A DNA stretch of 64,000 bases from Candidatus Fermentithermobacillaceae bacterium DTU015 (GCA_001513185.1 LFST01000046.1:82161-146160); one strand, 5' to 3'; counted from the stretch's first letter, positions 5,067 to 38,472 are shown. Made by a program: numbers and translations. Notes: generated from the letters alone by a model not told the origin.

Positions 5067-6758
5067 ATGTTGATCGTTTCCGCCGAAGAGATGCGCAGGC
5101 TGGACAACATGGCGCAACAACTGGGGGTACCCGCCCTCCTGCTCATGGAAAACGCAGGCAGGGCATTGGCTGATCATGCTGAGCGATTGTTGGCAGGGCT
5201 CCCCTTTGAAGGCCTCACAAGCTGCCAAGCTCAGGCCGGTGACGCGGTGTTGCCCGCACGGCTACCCAAGAAGCAGATTGCCATCTTGGCGGGACCGGGC
5301 CAGAACGGCGGAGACGGGTTTTGCGCCGCCAGGCATCTGGCTGCAAGGGGGCATGAAGTAAAGGTAGGTTTCTTTGGGAAGCAGGCGAAGCTGCCTGAGG
5401 AAGCCCACATGAACTACCAGATGCTTGCCTCATACCCCGTGGAAGTGTATCCGGTTGAGACTATGTCGCCGCAAGAGGTGCTGGATGCCTTGGGCCATCC
5501 CGACCTGATAATCGATGCGCTCTTGGGGATCGGGGGCCAAGGGGACCCCAGGTCGCCTATGGACATGGCAATAAGGTGGGCTAATTCCCAGGATGCGCCT
5601 GTGGTGGCGTGTGACATACCCTCAGGGTTGTCGGCGGATACAGGTTACGCCTATTCTCCTTGCATCCAGGCGGATCTCACCATCACCATGGGGTTTGCCA
5701 AGATCGGGCTCTTAAGCTATCCGGGCAGGATGTACACAGGTCACCTGATTGTTGAGAAACTGAGTTTTCCTCCAGGCATGGTAGTGGATTACCATCGTGA
5801 AGGCGGACAGACCCAAGCAGGCCTTCCAAGCCAGGCACAGGCTGACGGGCCCATTACCATCCTCGCTAAAGCGGCCACTATGGAACAAGCGGCAAGGTTG
5901 ATGCCGGTAAGGCGCGGAGATCACCACAAAGGAGTTTCGGGGCATGTGGTGGTAGTTGCAGGTTGTGTGGGCATGGCAGGCGCCGGGGTTCTGGCTGCCA
6001 AGAGCGCGCTTAGGGCAGGGGCCGGGACAGTCACCCTCATCTGCCCCGGTGGGGCGTACAATGCATGTGCAGGAGCGGTGCCTGAGGTCATGGTGGTACC
6101 TTGCGGCGAGTCGGGCGTGTTCTGCCCGAGTAAAGACTGCATTGAAGTGGTGCGCACAAATCTTGAGAGAGCAGCCGCGGTGGTCTTAGGGCCGGGATGG
6201 GGACGGGGGGATTTTCAGACACAGTTTTTGAAGGAGATCCTCCCTATTGCGTCGAAAAAAACCTGTGTGATAGACGCAGACGCGCTGTTTGCCCTAAGAC
6301 AGCTGGGCGGATTCTCATATCTGGCCGGCCTCCAGGGAAACTTTATTCTGACACCCCATCCAGGGGAGATGTCAGTGCTTACCGGGCTAAGCACCGGACA
6401 GATCCAAAAGGATAGGCCCGGTTACGCCAGGCAAGGGGCGCATGAATCAAACAGCGTGGTGTGCCTGAAAGGTGCCGGAACGTGTACTGCCGGGCCTTCA
6501 GGGCAGCTATGTGTGAATACATCAGGCGGGCCTTACATGGCAACTGCAGGTTCAGGTGATGTCCTCACCGGCGTTATCGCCGCGTTGGCTGCCCAGGGGC
6601 TTCCACCATATGAAAGCGCCTGGTTAGGTGTGTTCTGGCACGGGCTGGCAGGAGAAGCAGCCTTTAGGCGGAAAGGAGCGTACGGCATATTGGCCGGCGA
6701 TATAATAGAATGTTTGCCTGAGGCCAGGGCGCTTATAGGAGCACCCGAGACTAATTGA
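5067..6758 (+). CDS. nnr: Bifunctional NAD(P)H-hydrate repair enzyme Nnr (epimerase + ADP-dependent dehydratase)
   Basis: YjeF-N domain with the GPGQNGGDG loop, then a carbohydrate-kinase-like C-terminal half (GHVVVVAGCVGMAGAG, GSGDVLTG). Length 563 aa. Confidence 0.85.
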   Translation: MLIVSAEEMRRLDNMAQQLGVPALLLMENAGRALADHAERLLAGLPFEGLTSCQAQAGDAVLPARLPKKQIAILAGPGQNGGDGFCAARHLAARGHEVKVGFFGKQAKLPEEAHMNYQMLASYPVEVYPVETMSPQEVLDALGHPDLIIDALLGIGGQGDPRSPMDMAIRWANSQDAPVVACDIPSGLSADTGYAYSPCIQADLTITMGFAKIGLLSYPGRMYTGHLIVEKLSFPPGMVVDYHREGGQTQAGLPSQAQADGPITILAKAATMEQAARLMPVRRGDHHKGVSGHVVVVAGCVGMAGAGVLAAKSALRAGAGTVTLICPGGAYNACAGAVPEVMVVPCGESGVFCPSKDCIEVVRTNLERAAAVVLGPGWGRGDFQTQFLKEILPIASKKTCVIDADALFALRQLGGFSYLAGLQGNFILTPHPGEMSVLTGLSTGQIQKDRPGYARQGAHESNSVVCLKGAGTCTAGPSGQLCVNTSGGPYMATAGSGDVLTGVIAALAAQGLPPYESAWLGVFWHGLAGEAAFRRKGAYGILAGDIIECLPEARALIGAPETN

Positions 6759-32220: not shown

Positions 32221-33678
32221 GTGAGCAACATGAACATTGATGAAAAGTCGCTTCGGGCAATTGTCAAGAACCTCGAAAGAGACGTCGAGAAGCGGCCTAG
32301 AGACGTGGCTACAAGGCTTCAGCTCGCCCTGTCGTATATGAGGCTTGCAGAGGCGGACAAGGCCCGGGAGCACCTGGAGAAAGTAATAGAGTTGGATAAA
32401 CGCAATGTTGAAGCCCATTATTACCTCGGCATCCTTTGGGCTGATACAGGCAAGCTGGAAGAAGCCAAGAACGCATTTAAGCGGACTATTGCTCTGGATA
32501 GATCCCATTCGCCGTCCCACTATTTCTTGGGGAAAATCTACGCACTTGAAGGCAACTTGGATGCTGCCATTTCACAAACTGAGAAAGCCAGGGACGCAGC
32601 TCCCGGCAACGTGCTGGCCCGGGTGCAGCTGGGAGAGCTGTATCTGGCCAAGGGCAGGATCAGGGACAGCCTGGATGAATGGCTTGAAATCTTGAAGTTA
32701 GAGCCCGCCAACCTCCAGGCGCTGCACAACGTAGGTGCCATATATACTGATCTTAAGATGTTTGACGAAGCCCTTGAAGTGCTGGAGCGGGCAGAGCGGT
32801 TGGGTTCAGACACTTCCCTCTTGTTCTACAACAAGGGGCTTTGCTTTATGGGCAAGCAGGAGTACGCCAAGGCAATCGAAGCCCTCACCAAAGCACATGA
32901 ATTGGAACCGGAGAATACTATGACCCTCACCACCCTGGGCGAAGCTTACGCCATGTCAGGGGATATTGACACGGCCATGGGCAAGTGGCAGCAAGTACTT
33001 GACGCCAACCCTGATGACCTGTTTGCCACCTACAATTTGGGGCTTGCCTTCCTTGAGAAAAATGAGATGGACAAAGCGGTAGACATGTGGGAAAAATGTG
33101 TGTCCCTAAACCCCGCGTACATACCTGCACGCCAAAACCTTGCCACCTTGGCGGTCAACGCAGGAGATTTCAACAAAGCCATAGCACATTGGCGTGCAAT
33201 CAACCAGCTGGATCCCGGCAGCCCCAGGCCTCAGATGATCTTGGGGGAACTGTATTACAGGGCAGGGGACTTAGATCAAGCCTTGCGGCTCACCGAGGAA
33301 CTTGTGGAGAAACTCGGGCAGGTTGAACCCAAGGACAAAGAAGAGCGTAAACTAAGGTCGGATACTGAATTCCTGCATGGCACGGTGCTCATGGCCTCGG
33401 GCAGTCCCCGGGACGGCTTGGATCATTGGGTCAAGGCACTTAACTACAATCCCAACTTTGCCCTTGAAGCCAGCGGGTTTATATCCAGGGCCATTTGGCC
33501 GGAACTGCTCAAATTTGCAGAGGAGCATGCTCAGACTGAAGACCACAGGAAGGTAATCAGCCTGGTAAGCAGTTTCGTCAAGGAAGATACCAGGCCTCCT
33601 GAGGGTGTGGAGGCAGTTCCCAAAGTAGAGGAACGGAGAAAGGTCGGTTTCAGGTGGTTCTCACGGGGAAAGAAATAG
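32221..33678 (+). CDS. Tetratricopeptide-repeat protein
   Basis: About ten TPR units (EAHYYLGILWADTGKLEEA, NAFKRTIALD and others). GTG start with a GAGGGG RBS. Confidence 0.7.
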   Translation: MSNMNIDEKSLRAIVKNLERDVEKRPRDVATRLQLALSYMRLAEADKAREHLEKVIELDKRNVEAHYYLGILWADTGKLEEAKNAFKRTIALDRSHSPSHYFLGKIYALEGNLDAAISQTEKARDAAPGNVLARVQLGELYLAKGRIRDSLDEWLEILKLEPANLQALHNVGAIYTDLKMFDEALEVLERAERLGSDTSLLFYNKGLCFMGKQEYAKAIEALTKAHELEPENTMTLTTLGEAYAMSGDIDTAMGKWQQVLDANPDDLFATYNLGLAFLEKNEMDKAVDMWEKCVSLNPAYIPARQNLATLAVNAGDFNKAIAHWRAINQLDPGSPRPQMILGELYYRAGDLDQALRLTEELVEKLGQVEPKDKEERKLRSDTEFLHGTVLMASGSPRDGLDHWVKALNYNPNFALEASGFISRAIWPELLKFAEEHAQTEDHRKVISLVSSFVKEDTRPPEGVEAVPKVEERRKVGFRWFSRGKK

Positions 33679-34514
33679 CAACCGAGCCGGGCCTGCAGGG
33701 CATCGAAGTGATCGCTCTTGTGGGACCAAGCGGCACGGGCAAGTCCCACCACGCAATGTGGGTTGCCCAGGAATACGGGTGCCGGGCAATCATCGACGAT
33801 GGCCTGTTGATTTCCGGCTCAAGGATAGTCGCAGGTAAATCGGCTAAACGGGAAGAGACCAAGACCGCGGCGGTGAGAAGGGCGGTGTTTACTTCTGCCG
33901 CCCACGCTTTAGAGGTCAGGGCAGCTCTTGAGGACCTAAAGGTAGAGCGGGTGTTGGTGCTCGGCACTTCGGTTTCAATGATACAGCGCATAGTGTCAAG
34001 GCTGGGCCTCTCTGAGCCTTCGCTTATATTGGACATAAGGGATTTAGCTAGCGAAGAGGAGATCAGGGAGGCCTTGTGGCGAAGGCGGCAAGAGGGCAAG
34101 CACGTGATCCCGGCCCCCGCCTTCGAGGTCAAGAAAACCTTCTCAGGCTACCTGGTAGATCCTCTTAAGATCTTCGTGAGGGCCAGGGAAAAGATGCCGG
34201 CCGTTATGGAAAGAAGCGTGGTCAGGCCTACATACAGCTACTTTGGCAACTTCTACATCGCAGACAACGTTGTAATGCAGATGGCTACAAAGATCTGCTA
34301 CGAAATCGAGGGCGTGAAGCGGGTGCTGCGGGTCCTGGTGCTCACCACAGGCGACGGCGCCATGCTTGAAGTTGAACTGGTACTTAAGTCCGGCTTCCCT
34401 GTGTTTGAAGTGATGCAGGAAGTTCAGTCCAAGCTCAAGCAAAAGCTTGAGTACCTTACCGGAATTTACCTGCTTAGCGTGGATGTGATCACCAAGAAAA
34501 TCGGCTTGGATTAG
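33654..34514 (+). CDS. Fusion protein: HprK/RapZ-like P-loop domain + Asp23/Gls24 (DUF322) domain
   Basis: N-terminal half IALVGPSGTGKSHHAMWVAQEYGCRAIIDDGLLI resembles the HprK C-domain Walker A plus ADD motif. C-terminal half has the Asp23-family pattern (YSYFGNFYIADNVVMQMA...GVKRV...V). The GTG start overlaps the TPR gene by 25 nt. Confidence 0.5.
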   Translation: MVLTGKEIATEPGLQGIEVIALVGPSGTGKSHHAMWVAQEYGCRAIIDDGLLISGSRIVAGKSAKREETKTAAVRRAVFTSAAHALEVRAALEDLKVERVLVLGTSVSMIQRIVSRLGLSEPSLILDIRDLASEEEIREALWRRRQEGKHVIPAPAFEVKKTFSGYLVDPLKIFVRAREKMPAVMERSVVRPTYSYFGNFYIADNVVMQMATKICYEIEGVKRVLRVLVLTTGDGAMLEVELVLKSGFPVFEVMQEVQSKLKQKLEYLTGIYLLSVDVITKKIGLD

Positions 34515-34573
34515 GCTTGGACCTGGGCTAACGACGAGCGGTGTTGAAATAGTAATAGTATGGGAGGGGGACC

Positions 34574-35953
34574 ATGAAACCGGCCTACGGCCTAGAACTA
34601 ATTCAGACACAGAAGCTCGTCCTCACGCCTGAGCTGCATCAAGCCATTATGATCTTGCAGATGAACGTTCAGGAGCTGTCGGCCCTGCTATTGGAGGAAG
34701 TTGAGACAAACCCGCTCTTGGAATTGGCCGGCCACATTGCAGAAAAATCATACGATGATTCCCCCGGTGACGAAGAAGACTGGATAGCTTACTTCTTCGA
34801 CTCTTCAGACCTCGGCCTCGGAGGAAGGGAAGCGCGCAGGAGCTCCGGCGGGCTTTCAGATGAATGGAGACCTTTGGATTACGCTCCTGTCCAACCTAAT
34901 ACCTCAATCAGGGGGCACCTGTTGTCCCAGCTGGGGGTGTTACACCTTACCGAGAAAGAGCAGGCTATCGCCTGCTTCATCATTGAAAGCATAGATGATA
35001 ACGGCTATCTCCAAGCCACCACCGAGGAGATTGCCTCAGCTACGGCCAGCACCCCGGAGCAGGTTGAGGCCGTGCTCGAGCTCATCCAGAGATTCGATCC
35101 CCCCGGGGTTGCTGCCAGGAACTTGAGGGAATGCCTTAAGCTGCAGGCCGAAGCAAGAGGGCTTGGAGAGCTTGTGTTGCAGATCATACAGCATCATCTG
35201 GATGATCTCGCAAAGGGCAGGTACACCAAGATATCCCAAAGCACCGGAACTTCGCTTCAGCAGGTGTTAAGGGCCAGGGACGCCATATTAGGCCTTGAGC
35301 CCAAACCAGGGGCGGCGTTTTCAGGCGGCCACGTCACTTTCATAGTGCCCGACGTTGCCGTGCGGAGGCTTGGCGATGAATTTGTGGTGATTCTAAACGA
35401 CAGCGCTTTGCTGGCAATCAGGTGGAATCCCTACTACAGGAAACTGCTTGCCGCCGGCGAACAAGATGCCAGAAACTATCTGATTAAGCAGATGAGGAGG
35501 GCCCGTTTCCTGCTGAGAAGCATAGAACAAAGACGGTTGACAATATCAAGGGTAATGGAAGCCATCGTCGAGCGGCAGCGGCGGTTCTTCATGGAAGGCC
35601 CGGGACATCTTGAACCTATGACCCTCAAGGATATTGCCAGCCGGCTGGATATGCACGATTCCACGGTATCCCGGGCGGTGGCGGGCAAGTATGTGGATAC
35701 TCCATTCGGGGTGTTCCCGTGCAAAATGTTTTTTACCCCAGGGGTGGAATCGCGTGGGCAAGAGGTATCCCAATACAACATAAAGAAGCTTATCGAACAA
35801 ATGGTCCGCAGCGAAGATCCTGGCAACCCGCTCACCGACAGCCAAATCGCCCATGCCCTAAACCGGCGGGGAATAGACATTGCAAGGCGCACGGTTGCCA
35901 AATATCGCTCTCAATTGGGGATTCCTCCCTCAAATCGCAGGAAGAAATTATAA
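34574..35953 (+). CDS. rpoN: RNA polymerase sigma-54 factor
   Basis: N-terminal activator-interacting region LxLxQxLxPxLQQAIxLLQ and the C-terminal RpoN box ARRTVAKYR. Confidence 0.9.
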   Translation: MKPAYGLELIQTQKLVLTPELHQAIMILQMNVQELSALLLEEVETNPLLELAGHIAEKSYDDSPGDEEDWIAYFFDSSDLGLGGREARRSSGGLSDEWRPLDYAPVQPNTSIRGHLLSQLGVLHLTEKEQAIACFIIESIDDNGYLQATTEEIASATASTPEQVEAVLELIQRFDPPGVAARNLRECLKLQAEARGLGELVLQIIQHHLDDLAKGRYTKISQSTGTSLQQVLRARDAILGLEPKPGAAFSGGHVTFIVPDVAVRRLGDEFVVILNDSALLAIRWNPYYRKLLAAGEQDARNYLIKQMRRARFLLRSIEQRRLTISRVMEAIVERQRRFFMEGPGHLEPMTLKDIASRLDMHDSTVSRAVAGKYVDTPFGVFPCKMFFTPGVESRGQEVSQYNIKKLIEQMVRSEDPGNPLTDSQIAHALNRRGIDIARRTVAKYRSQLGIPPSNRRKKL

Positions 35954-36005: not shown

Positions 36006-36034
36006 TTGACGTTTGGCGGGTTAGGCACTACAAT
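36006..36034 (+). promoter_or_regulatory. Sigma-A-type promoter upstream of rnfC (TTGACG-N17-TACAAT)
   Basis: Hexamers and spacing read directly from the sequence, about 65 nt upstream of the rnfC GTG. Confidence 0.45.
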
Positions 36035-36099: not shown

Positions 36100-37461
36100 G
36101 TGGCAATTGAGGTGGAAACAGTGATTACCATCATAAAAAAGATGATCGGAGGCGTGCCGGTTCCTGACAAAAAGGAACTGTCGGAGAAGGCTCCGGTAGA
36201 GTTCGCAGGGATTCCTGATGAACTCGTTCTTTTTATGTCCCATCATATAGGTGCTCCGGCTGTGCCCTTGGTCAAGCCCAAGGACACGGTCAAGCGCGGG
36301 CAGCTGATAGCTGAACCCCAGGGGTTGGTGAGCGCTGCCTTACACGCCCCTACTTCCGGAGTGGTAAAGGCTATTGAGCCGAGATTTCATCCGGTGCTAG
36401 CTTGCATGTCAGAAGCCATTGTGATTGAGCCTGACGGCAAGCATGAACCGGTTGAAGGGCTGGCTCCTAAAGCGTCTGATTTGGATAGCCTTTCAGCTGA
36501 ACAGATCAGGGCCATAGCCAGGGAAGCCGGAATTGTGGGGCTCGGAGGTGCATGTTTCCCTACGTCTGCTAAGATTACTCCGCCTGAGGACAAGCATCTG
36601 GATACTTACTTGCTCAACGGGTCTGAATGTGAGCCCTATCTTACTGCAGACCACAGGGTGATGCTGGAAGAGGCGGAAAAGGTGATCTTCGGGTTTAAGG
36701 CACTTATGAAGGCGTCAGGCGTAAGCCGCGGGATCGTGTGTATAGAGGATAACAAGCCTGATGCTATTGAAGCCATGAAGCAAGCCATGTCCGGTTACGA
36801 CGGATTGGAGCTTGCAGTGCTGACCACCCGGTATCCCAGGGGTGGAGAAAAGCAGCTCACTCAGGCTGTATTGGGCAGAGAAGTGCCTCCGCCGCCTGGC
36901 TTGCCTTACGATGTGGGTGTCTTGGTATCAAACGTAGGTACTGCCTATGCGTTGGCAGAGGCTATACTTACAGGCCTTCCGCTGGTGGAAAGAGTCGTAA
37001 CCGTTACCGGCGAAGGGGTAGCCAAGCCGTCTAACTTCAAGGCCCTTATAGGCACTCCGGTATCATACTTGATTGAAAAGGCAGGCGGGTTTGCCGGCAC
37101 TCCGGGCAAGGTGATAATGGGAGGCCCAATGATGGGCTGCGCCCTAAAGAGCCTGGATGTTCCGGTATTGAAGGGTACTACCGGAATACTGGTGCTCACT
37201 AAAGAACAAGCGGTCCAAGAGCCTATCCTTCCCTGCATCAAGTGCGGTAAATGCATTGACGCGTGCCCTCTGGGATTGCAACCCTTGTGGATTTCGGCCT
37301 ATGCCGAGCGGGGGTTCATTGAAGAAGCTGAAAGCTTCAGGGCAATGGATTGTATGGAATGCGGGTGTTGTGCTTATATCTGCCCTGCAAAAAGGCCTCT
37401 TGTGCAATTGATAAAGATGGCCAAGGCAGAAATTTCATCGAGGCGGAAGGCTCGCAGATGA
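36100..37461 (+). CDS. rnfC: Rnf complex subunit C (NADH-binding, 2x[4Fe-4S])
   Basis: RnfC_N hybrid motif (VKRGQLIAEPQGLVSAALHAPTSGVV) and CIKCGKCIDACP / CMECGCCAYICP ferredoxin motifs. Confidence 0.85.
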   Translation: MAIEVETVITIIKKMIGGVPVPDKKELSEKAPVEFAGIPDELVLFMSHHIGAPAVPLVKPKDTVKRGQLIAEPQGLVSAALHAPTSGVVKAIEPRFHPVLACMSEAIVIEPDGKHEPVEGLAPKASDLDSLSAEQIRAIAREAGIVGLGGACFPTSAKITPPEDKHLDTYLLNGSECEPYLTADHRVMLEEAEKVIFGFKALMKASGVSRGIVCIEDNKPDAIEAMKQAMSGYDGLELAVLTTRYPRGGEKQLTQAVLGREVPPPPGLPYDVGVLVSNVGTAYALAEAILTGLPLVERVVTVTGEGVAKPSNFKALIGTPVSYLIEKAGGFAGTPGKVIMGGPMMGCALKSLDVPVLKGTTGILVLTKEQAVQEPILPCIKCGKCIDACPLGLQPLWISAYAERGFIEEAESFRAMDCMECGCCAYICPAKRPLVQLIKMAKAEISSRRKARR

Positions 37462-37494
37462 GCTGGGCCTGTGTGTAGATACGGAGGTATAGAC

Positions 37495-38472
37495 ATGGGA
37501 GACAGACTACTGGTAACACCACCACCGCATGTGAAGAGTGCCAAGACGGTGCAGGGAATTATGCTGGATGTGGTAATAGCCCTCTGCCCAGCTGCGATAG
37601 CCGGCATTGTACTGTTTGGGTTCAGGGCGGCGCTGATCATACTTGCTTCAGTGGTTTCTGCGGTAGCTTCAGAAGCTATCTACCAGAGAGCGGTCAAGAA
37701 GCAAGTCACAATCAACGATTTTTCCGCGGTGATCACGGGATTGCTGTTGGCGTTGACACTCCCGCCAAATGTGCCTGTGTGGATCCCGGTCATAGGGGCT
37801 GCGTTTGCGATTGTGGTTGTGAAACAGCTTTTCGGCGGTTTGGGGAACAACTTCCTCAACCCTGCCCTGGCTGCCAGGGCGTTCTTGCTTGCCGCGTGGC
37901 CCTTGCACATGACCCAGGATTGGGTCAATCCCATGAGCTATGACGCAGCAACATCTGCAACGCCTCTTGCCGGGTTCAATGCCACGGGGCAGACTGCATT
38001 GACGTTTAAGGAAATGCTGCTTGGTCAAAGGCTCGGCTCTATTGGAGAGACTTGCATACTGGCGCTCTTGCTGGGTGGGATATACCTGCTCGCCAGGGAT
38101 GTAATAGACTACAGGACCCCCTTGGGTTACCTGGGTACCCTGGCTGTAGGCACGTGGATTTTCGGTAAGCCCGGAGAGCTTTTCCAGGGCAATCCGCTAA
38201 GCGCCATCTTCCTGGGCGGGGCCTTTATCGGTGCGTTTTTCATGGCCACCGACTACGTGACCTCACCTGTCACCCCGAGGGGCAGGTTGTACATGGGAAT
38301 AGGCTGCGGCTTGATCACCCTGGTAATTAGGCTTTGGGGCGGCTATCCTGAAGGGGTCACTTACGCGATCTTGTTCATGAATCTTGTTACGCCGCTGATT
38401 GATAAGTACGTAGTGCCGAGGTATTACGGTTCTGGCCATGACAAAATGGCCCGTAAAGGCGGCGGGAGGTGA
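37495..38472 (+). CDS. rnfD: Rnf complex subunit D
   Basis: Polytopic NqrB/RnfD-like sequence. The start was taken at the ATG with an ACGGAGG RBS. Confidence 0.85.
   Translation: MGDRLLVTPPPHVKSAKTVQGIMLDVVIALCPAAIAGIVLFGFRAALIILASVVSAVASEAIYQRAVKKQVTINDFSAVITGLLLALTLPPNVPVWIPVIGAAFAIVVVKQLFGGLGNNFLNPALAARAFLLAAWPLHMTQDWVNPMSYDAATSATPLAGFNATGQTALTFKEMLLGQRLGSIGETCILALLLGGIYLLARDVIDYRTPLGYLGTLAVGTWIFGKPGELFQGNPLSAIFLGGAFIGAFFMATDYVTSPVTPRGRLYMGIGCGLITLVIRLWGGYPEGVTYAILFMNLVTPLIDKYVVPRYYGSGHDKMARKGGGR

Follow-up and report, generated by a model that had tools for sequence, protein, structure and literature searches.

The DNA analysed here, called the window, is a stretch of 64,000 nt (one strand, coordinates counted from the first letter) of Candidatus Fermentithermobacillaceae bacterium DTU015 (GCA_001513185.1, LFST01000046.1:82161-146160). 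The subject of this report is gene X, which lies between a gene for a tetratricopeptide repeat (TPR) protein and rpoN, the gene for sigma-54 (Table 1), and which encodes a predicted P-loop domain and an Asp23-like domain in one protein. A first-pass annotation of the same DNA had described an open reading frame (ORF) with the motif GPSGTGKS followed by IIDDG at this position, and this was borne out by the ORF call and by direct reading of the sequence. The annotation was also right in placing the start of X inside the 3' end of the TPR gene and its stop shortly before rpoN. The overlap amounts to 25 nt, and the spacer to rpoN is 59 nt long instead of the 60 nt counted before.

A scan of the three-gene stretch found no terminator-like site between the TPR gene, X and rpoN. 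Because of this, and because of the spacings of -25 and +59 nt, the arrangement looks like an operon, with the TPR gene, X and rpoN apparently on one transcript. Translation of X is probably also coupled to that of the TPR protein, which is cytoplasmic.

Table 1. Features of the gene X locus, with positions in the window
Feature	Position	Strand	Basis and remarks
TPR-repeat protein gene, 485 aa	32221..33678	+	Pfam TPR_2, E = 1.2e-53, 10 stretches
Gene X, 286 aa	33654..34514	+	GTG start, stop included; ORF call and direct read of sequence
N-terminal extension, residues 1-17 (MVLTGKEI...)	33654..33704	+	Clade-specific; MV(L/F)xGKE(I/V) in close relatives
P-loop NTP-binding domain, predicted kinase-like, residues 18-148	33705..34097	+	AlphaFold2 model, Foldseek, conservation
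Walker A, G24-P-S-G-T-G-K30-S31	33723..33746	+	Direct read; at least 95% conserved in 113 sequences
I46-I-D48-D49-G50, end of strand 2	33789..33803	+	Candidate Mg2+ ligand or catalytic base; D48, D49 and G50 at least 95% conserved
Family-specific linker, residues 149-197	34098..34244	+	GKHVIPAP.FEVKK.FSGYLVDP ... EKSVVRPT.S; no Pfam model
Asp23/Gls24-like domain, residues ~198-286, ~90 aa	34245..34511	+	PF03780, model
Spacer between X and rpoN, 59 nt	34515..34573	+	Holds the rpoN ribosome-binding site GGGAGGGGG at 34562-34570
rpoN (sigma-54), 459 aa	34574..35953	+	ATG start; TIGR02395, 431.8 bits; Sigma54_AID, CBD and DBD all found

Architecture and extent of the X family

The X family is narrow, mostly found in Bacillota, and has essentially one architecture, in which a P-loop domain is followed by a linker and an Asp23-type domain. 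A protein 100% identical to X (P0001) is present on 302 contigs of uncultured Bacillota and is annotated there as "hypothetical protein". A sequence search with X gave 5502 matches at E <= 1e-3, and full-length homologues of 270-290 residues were found down to 30-47% identity. On contigs from one genome per species, 587 of the first 600 pattern matches encode a relative, which sets a lower bound of 587 species; carriers were found among the Fermentithermobacillaceae, to which the window belongs, the Symbiobacteriaceae, Thermaerobacter, Tepidanaerobacter, Thermovorax, Fervidicola, the Hungateiclostridiaceae and Clostridium. An exhaustive search of 1.84 billion cluster representatives with a hidden Markov model (HMM) of the N-domain gave no more than 857 hits at E <= 1e-3, of which 331 reached E <= 1e-30.

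The fused form dominates these collections. Length was 255-310 residues in 112 of the 150 representatives listed from the HMM search (median 275), and 12 of the 150 were shorter than 200 residues; in most of the short ones the protein stops within the P-loop domain or linker, or runs into unrelated sequence. Gene context was surveyed at 80 genome loci, of which 23 belong to the clade of the window (L001-L023) and 57 lie outside it (13 clusters at 60% identity), and in all 80 the tblastn match spans about 262-288 residues of X. Strong conservation also runs across the domain junction in an alignment of 32 sequences. The claim that the P-loop and Asp23 parts form one conserved protein was therefore upheld by full-length homologues across species, and the possibility, raised in the first-pass annotation, that the halves are separate or frameshifted genes in relatives does not apply.

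Homologues of X carry the database names "hypothetical protein", "Asp23/Gls24 family envelope stress response protein", "YloU/adenylate kinase family enzyme" and "YloU/cytidylate kinase". Literature searches on Asp23 with a P-loop or ATPase domain or DUF322, and on Fermentithermobacillus, retrieved nothing on the family, in agreement with the earlier view of X as an unrecognised protein. Among the longer representatives, the only additions to the architecture were an intein in one protein and CWB2 repeats in another, a probable chimera. The latter (P0207, 548 residues, outside the window) has three CWB2 cell-wall-binding repeats behind the P-loop domain of the family, in place of the linker and the Asp23 domain. 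As these extracellular repeats are present without a preceding signal peptide, P0207 probably arose from an assembly or gene-call error.

Fold and conserved residues of protein X

Judged from profile comparisons and a structure model, the N-domain of X falls outside the HprK and RapZ families and is most aptly called a kinase-like domain of the classical P-loop type that has diverged very far. The N-terminal extension is missing from distant homologues, which start at about residue 17-18 of X (e.g., MEVIALVGPSG). An AlphaFold2 model of residues 11-152 (mf848eac0865f) was obtained with a predicted local distance difference test score (pLDDT) of 91.9 and a predicted template modelling score (pTM) of 0.87. 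Along the chain, the model shows strand 1 and Walker A, then helix 1 and strand 2 (with DD at its end), next a beta-hairpin and a pair of helices, strand 3 (with GTS at its end), another helix, strand 4 and finally the helix that carries R144; only four core strands are present within these residues. A Foldseek search of PDB with this model identified adenylate kinases 5 and 1, shikimate kinase, FtsY/SRP54, and UMP-CMP, gluconate and dTMP kinases as best matches (E 3.9e-3 to 3e-2, probability 0.8-1.0, TMq 0.32-0.53).

In profile alignments by hhalign, the highest probabilities were reached by E. coli AroK (shikimate kinase; 89.5%, 27 columns) and E. coli GntK (gluconate kinase; 88.5%, 30 columns), followed by the P-loop segment of HprK (1jb1 and 1ko7; 47.8%, 33 columns), E. 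coli Adk (adenylate kinase; 20.6%, 31 columns), the whole 171-residue catalytic domain of HprK aligned to the full-length family profile (18.7%, 32 columns) and E. coli RapZ (15.6%, 14 columns). For the N-domain, Pfam and NCBIfam searches with X and 24 homologues returned only generic P-loop families below threshold (AAA, AAA_33, ABC_tran, IPT, Cytidylate_kin, IstB). No Pfam kinase family scored above threshold for any of these sequences, and no Pfam or NCBIfam model covers the N-domain or the linker of X. Run as a profile against PDB sequences, the full-length alignment gave, among the best 60 of 91 matches at E <= 10, only ABC transporter matches at the level of the Walker A motif (best E = 0.005).

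The top Foldseek and hhalign partners are classical P-loop kinases, represented by human AK5 (2BWJ), E. coli AroK (1KAG) and E. coli GntK (1KO5). The N-domain has in common with them the Walker A motif and a strand 3 without an acidic Walker B, and it probably also shares the Asp residues just after strand 2 and the helix with an Arg after strand 4. In contrast, X has a beta-hairpin where the kinases have a helical nucleoside monophosphate- or substrate-binding subdomain.

Conservation was assessed in a wider set of 113 sequences, 30-47% identical to X, with a threshold of at least 95%. Positions reaching it were G24, G27, G29, K30, S31, D48, D49, G50, I53, G61, S63, K65, A77, F79, T105, S106, M109, I113, L117, I128, A140, R144, H150, P153 and P192. 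In this set, the mean frequency of the top residue was 0.58 in the P-loop domain, 0.50 in the linker and 0.31 in the Asp23 part. Walker A and IIDDG are separated by 16 residues in X, and 148 of the 150 representatives listed contain the hhDDG motif. The invariant set consists of the Walker A motif, the Asp pair ending strand 2, a G-x-S-A-K loop after the hairpin, a T-S pair that ends strand 3 at the place of Walker B and the Arg after strand 4. Its polar residues look active-site-like, and in the model D48, D49 and R144 sit at the secondary-structure positions expected of classical P-loop kinases.

A homologue outside the window (P0235) carries a mini-intein of about 145 residues between the Lys and the Ser of Walker A (GPSGTGK/CVSP...ILTHN/SHRA, with slashes at the borders). 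It has the canonical Cys1 and C-terminal His-Asn and uses the Walker A Ser as +1 nucleophile, and its match to Pfam Intein_splicing is weak (E = 5.8e-5). Inteins typically sit at such P-loop sites in functional ATPases, and the insertion may be counted among the signs of a functional active site in the X family.

The first-pass annotation had seen a pattern of HPr kinase and RapZ in the N-domain. The local motif is real and invariant in the family, whereas membership in either family was not upheld. In hhalign comparisons with genuine HprK chains taken from PDB (1jb1, 1ko7), the segment of X from GPSGTGKS(H) over 16 residues to IIDD aligns to GDSGVGKSE...LIADD of HprK with 39-41% identity over 32-33 columns, and the Glu following GKS in HprK is a His in X. 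X and the HprK catalytic domain (PF07475; 1JB1/1KKL, 1KO7) thus share GxSGxGKS, a helix, hh(A/D)DD and a strand, with the DD pair invariant in both; its second Asp is catalytic in HprK. However, X lacks the N-terminal domain and the signature region of HprK. Neither this signature (LLEIRGLGIIxV) nor the beta-rich remainder of the catalytic domain could be aligned, and hhalign ends at column 53 of X.

Other searches gave the same picture. Hpr_kinase_C (PF07475) and the RapZ Pfam family were not listed for X at E <= 1, nor were they among the 25 most frequent families for the 24 homologues at E <= 10. There was no HprK or RapZ chain among the best 60 of the 91 PDB sequence matches, and no HprK, RapZ or PEPCK chain in the Foldseek top 50 for the N-domain model, which consist of classical P-loop kinases (nucleoside monophosphate, shikimate and gluconate kinases) and SRP GTPases. 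Kinship to HprK was rejected on the evidence of Pfam, the PDB profile search, hhalign and Foldseek, as what is left is a motif match of 32-33 columns. RapZ (RapZ/YvcJ, PF03668) resembles X in being a P-loop protein encoded beside rpoN, as is the case here, and its N-domain is a kinase-like P-loop domain. Kinship was rejected here as well, since the hhalign match to E. coli RapZ covers the P-loop only and X ends in an Asp23-like domain in place of the RapZ C-terminal domain. The profile checks returned only generic P-loop families below threshold, in essence the outcome that the first-pass annotation had named as speaking against its proposal, and the relationship was not supported.

In the linker, H150, V151, P153, P155, F163, S164, G165, Y166, D169, P170, S188, V190, R191, P192, T193 and S195 are invariant in the 32-sequence alignment. 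The linker is nearly invariant among relatives at least 47% identical to X, and in the 113 wider sequences only H150, P153 and P192 reach the 95% threshold. In a full-length model, pLDDT was below 50 for residues 149-200; folding of the linker probably depends on a partner or on oligomerisation.

The Asp23 domain is C-terminal, as had been annotated, and with about 90 residues it is smaller than the 130 residues proposed. PF03780 matches X with 26.9 bits against a cut-off of 28 (E = 7.1e-6), residues 233-281 corresponding to profile positions 57-105. The identical protein P0001 carries a precomputed PF03780.19 assignment, the profile matched all 32 aligned homologues at E <= 0.01 (best E = 3.1e-13), and in P0203 the match extends over profile positions 3-105 of 108. 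The C-terminal alpha/beta domain was modelled with a block pLDDT of 79-96. A Foldseek search with the full-length model was dominated by ferredoxin-like C-terminal domains of cation diffusion facilitator transporters (MamM, TMt 0.81-0.84) and was uninformative for the N-domain; no solved Asp23 structure was among its matches.

X belongs to the Asp23/Gls24 family (PF03780, DUF322; S. aureus Asp23, B. subtilis YloU, YqhY/RfaA, E. faecalis Gls24) via its C-terminal domain only, and this is the least conserved region of X. Canonical members are small, stand-alone proteins, often with several paralogues, and S. aureus Asp23 is membrane-tethered through AmaP. They are encoded by separate genes in operons (PMC5437119), whereas X adds a P-loop domain of about 130 residues and a linker of about 50 residues. 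Asp23/DUF322 proteins are highly expressed in B. subtilis and S. aureus (PMC5437119). Furthermore, the YqhY and YloU modules associate with ATP-using enzymes, as in the conserved operons accBC-yqhY and yloU-yloV (PMC5437119), and in X the same association takes the form of a fusion.

Proposed mechanism and rival readings

The preferred reading of X as a whole, that of a kinase-like protein whose Asp23 module binds partners and which owes its place beside rpoN to inherited gene order, is slightly more likely than not. The N-domain of X is tentatively read as an ATP-dependent phosphotransferase (kinase), which from its motifs and modelled fold appears a little less than evenly likely. As Walker A, the helix and the hhDD motif are real and invariant in the family, the idea of a kinase with an Asp as base survives. 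Fold and conservation suggest that K30 and S31 would hold the beta and gamma phosphates and Mg2+. The D48-D49 pair at the end of strand 2 might act as metal ligand or as general base toward an acceptor hydroxyl; an Asp at the equivalent position does so in shikimate kinase and HprK. T105-S106 would occupy the Walker B position, R144 in the helix after strand 4 would be the lid arginine, and the hairpin, the S-A-K loop and the linker may together form the acceptor site. By analogy with YqhY/RfaA and the accBC-yqhY and yloU-yloV operons, the Asp23 domain with the linker could serve in oligomerisation or in the docking of a partner or substrate.

Several points weigh against a kinase. All structural matches are weak (none at E <= 1e-3, TM about 0.5), so that the kinase fold class is likely but not proven, and the profile similarity of X to any kinase ends after helix 1 or strand 2. 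With a pLDDT below 50, the role given to the linker is a guess. Moreover, SRP/FtsY GTPases are also among the Foldseek matches, so that X may be a switch without phosphotransfer.

Such a nucleotide-gated switch or adaptor, in which binding and hydrolysis of ATP or GTP would control Asp23 oligomerisation or partner binding, is unlikely, yet it is the alternative that survives best. A client might be sent to a protease or held on the TPR scaffold, in analogy to the action of RfaA/YqhY for ClpEP. The conserved, unstructured, proline- and aromatic-rich linker resembles a binding peptide, TPR proteins bind peptides of this kind, and the TPR partner is apparently translationally coupled to X. SRP54/FtsY GTPases among the structural matches are also in line with a switch, the adaptor RfaA/YqhY binds AccC and ClpE (bioRxiv 10.1101/2024.02.19.580884), and S. 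aureus Asp23 oligomerises in vivo (PMC6954212). However, the TPR partner was found in only three of the 13 sequence clusters, no GTPase NKxD motif was noticed on inspection of the alignment, and phosphotransferases are the best matches by structure and by profile. Small-molecule kinases would also account better than hydrolase switches for the invariant DD after strand 2 and for a T-S pair instead of an acidic Walker B. The likelihoods given for these readings overlap: kinase and switch are alternative mechanisms, whereas a role in the homeostasis of inorganic phosphate (Pi) could be combined with either of them.

A wider proposal goes beyond the kinase reading. X would found an unrecognised family of P-loop kinases or switches, and its Asp23 domain and linker would dock on the TPR protein and/or sigma-54, PhoR or a glycolytic regulator, thereby coupling ATP or phosphate status to the transcription of neighbouring regulons. 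This is distinctly doubtful.

Asp23/DUF322 proteins are widespread, and a molecular role, that of a protease adaptor, has so far been proposed for YqhY/RfaA only. By joining Asp23 to a kinase-like domain, the strongly conserved fusion gives a "Rosetta-stone" hint that Asp23 modules act together with ATP-using enzymes, and, if the docking reading were true, X would provide the first direct mechanistic handle on Asp23 domains as accessory modules of such enzymes. X is also a compact, soluble test object for Asp23 function. Its N-domain and linker are a legitimate annotation target, as they have no Pfam or NCBIfam model and no literature was found on them. The value of X thus lies in a clue to Asp23 function and not in a sigma-54 regulator, and the failed HprK/RapZ claim lowers the immediate interest.

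Gene order across lineages

Phosphate genes (phoP-phoR, pstS/C/A/B or a Na/Pi-PhoU transporter gene, identified by Pfam) are located downstream of X on the same strand in 19 of the 57 loci outside the clade of the window, belonging to 5 of the 13 clusters (L025, L026, L030, L038-L041, L043-L046, L053-L055, L063, L065, L067, L069, L072). In most of these 19 loci X is followed immediately by a Pho gene, at a spacing of -47 to +79 nt. The same arrangement is seen in an additional locus, L093, where pstS comes after X. Accordingly, X has been considered as an accessory of the Pho cluster that would sense the status of nucleotides or Pi, or pass it on to PhoR, Pst or Na/Pi transport, with the adjacency to rpoN being incidental. 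The three kinds of Pho genes found across lineages speak for such a role, which is nevertheless decidedly improbable. The Pho count is inflated by shared ancestry, because most of the loci fall into one cluster of 25 members, and PhoP-box-like repeats were present upstream of X in 0 of 18 Pho-linked loci (L093 was outside this test), the consensus being that of B. subtilis, which may not suit these lineages. There are no Pho genes nearby in the clade of the window, in the Clostridial clade (DUF6873, ytxC, X alone) or in the Tepidanaerobacter-type clade (GH18, X, nuoEF-like), and the Pho genes may just belong to the same ancestral block as X.

In the clade of the window, iscS and Rrf2 genes on the minus strand usually precede the TPR gene, X, rpoN and rnfCDG; the labels rnf, iscS and Rrf2 come from reading of ORF translations, without a Pfam test. 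The overlap of the TPR gene with X (-25/-28 nt) is kept in 22 clade loci. A more distant member of the clade (L022) has gap-pgk-tpi after rpoN in place of the rnf genes. In two loci (L019, L020), the TPR gene and X are followed by rnfC with a 176-nt gap (~5861-6074), and rpoN is not at this position; these genomes keep X where rpoN was lost or moved from the locus. Of the 57 loci outside the clade, 9 have rpoN within 5 kb on the downstream side of X, directly adjoining X in four (L024, L027, L028, L029) and separated by one to three genes in the others (L026, L035, L046, L061, L069).

A separately fetched metagenomic locus (L089) shows the order argG, argH, TPR, a 77-aa ORF, X, rpoN, gap, pgk, tpi, pgm. 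The TPR protein encoded there is orthologous to the one in the window and collinear with it (31% identity over 415 aa, E = 5e-71). By tblastn, L026, L027, L035 and L047 also gave TPR matches on the upstream side of X, and X lies directly before gap-pgk-tpi-pgm-eno in L051 and L090-L092. X is always on the 5' side of the block and co-directional. The simplest account of these arrangements would be an ancestral block argG-argH, TPR, X, (phoPR/pst/NaPi), rpoN, gap-pgk-tpi, of which different lineages kept different parts. As such an old block was kept piecemeal, the adjacency of X and rpoN is beyond chance, yet neither family-wide nor specific. The position of X beside rpoN is best explained as inherited gene order, for which a sigma-54-specific function would not be required. 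Against this account stands the tight spacing between X and rpoN, which recurs where X is only 47-50% identical (L027-L029, L089) and might reflect a real functional coupling.

The first-pass annotation had suggested a nucleotide-dependent regulator with a P-loop of the HprK or RapZ type, tied to sigma-54 like the proteobacterial rpoN-ptsN-rapZ-npr module; for X this is very unlikely. This idea draws on the invariant Walker A, 16-residue helix, hhDD and beta-strand, on the alignment to HprK segments (33 columns through DD, 39% identity, 47.8%) and on the location of X directly 5' of rpoN in the clade, in the four loci outside it and in L089. However, the match drops to 18.7% with the whole HprK catalytic domain, and RapZ matches over 14 columns only, with neither family among the Pfam, PDB and Foldseek matches listed. 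For the link to sigma-54, 48 of the 57 loci outside the clade are without rpoN within 5 kb, and two clade loci are without it at the locus, which reduces the proposed link to lineage-restricted synteny. In addition, E. coli rapZ and npr are downstream of rpoN (rpoN-hpf-ptsN, then rapZ), whereas X is upstream of rpoN and usually not beside it. A search for sigma-54 promoters (TGGCAY-N5-TTGCW, one mismatch) gave 3 sites in the window compared to 5.4 expected, and none near the X locus.

There is virtually no chance that X is an artefact, be it a chance ORF or two genes, one for the P-loop and one for Asp23, that a frameshift or a faulty assembly has brought together, and this was rejected, since full-length homologues occur across species genomes and cluster representatives (112 of 150 listed), at all 80 loci and, as an identical protein, on 302 contigs, with a conserved junction, and since most of the short representatives (120-195 aa) are consistent with fragments or frameshifted calls and not with separate genes.

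On the opposite strand of X, two antisense ORFs can be read (33650-34132, 160 aa, and 34143-34610, 155 aa, both minus strand). As they share their DNA with X, which is strongly conserved at the protein level, they are most likely non-coding shadows. Next after rpoN, a sigma-70-like promoter (TTGACG, 17 nt, TACAAT) is located at 36006-36034 on the plus strand. A 453-aa ORF 3' of it was read as rnfC, and the rnfC/rnfD ORFs span 36100-38472; this promoter suggests that the rnf genes are transcribed apart from the TPR gene, X and rpoN. A scan of the whole window for Rfam families and tRNAs gave no match.

In Tepidanaerobacter-type genomes, X stands between the gene for a c16 protein (read as copper-amine-oxidase/GH18) and nuoEF-like genes, labels that come from sequence reading without Pfam. 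Clostridial orthologues of X follow DUF6873 and ytxC and have a conserved TTGAC...ACAAT promoter-like element, a TTG start and a GGAGG ribosome-binding site. Their upstream gaps measure 400-690 nt, with long intergenic gaps on both sides, and no riboswitch or leader was found in these upstream gaps by Rfam. Between ytxC and X, a conserved rho-independent terminator-like hairpin, TCCGGG(G)AAAAGAAAAGAGAGTC...GGCTCTCTTTTTCCC, lies about 150-300 nt 5' of X (about 80 nt in L077) in L048, L050, L052, L057, L058, L068, L071, L074, L076-L078 and L080. It is most likely the terminator of ytxC, and together with the promoter-like element and the long flanking gaps it makes Clostridial X look monocistronic. 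About 2.5-3 kb downstream of X, 6S RNA (SsrS; Rfam RF00013, 61-67 bits) was identified in three Clostridial loci (L060:8177-8390, L076:8253-8468, L077:8947-9151).

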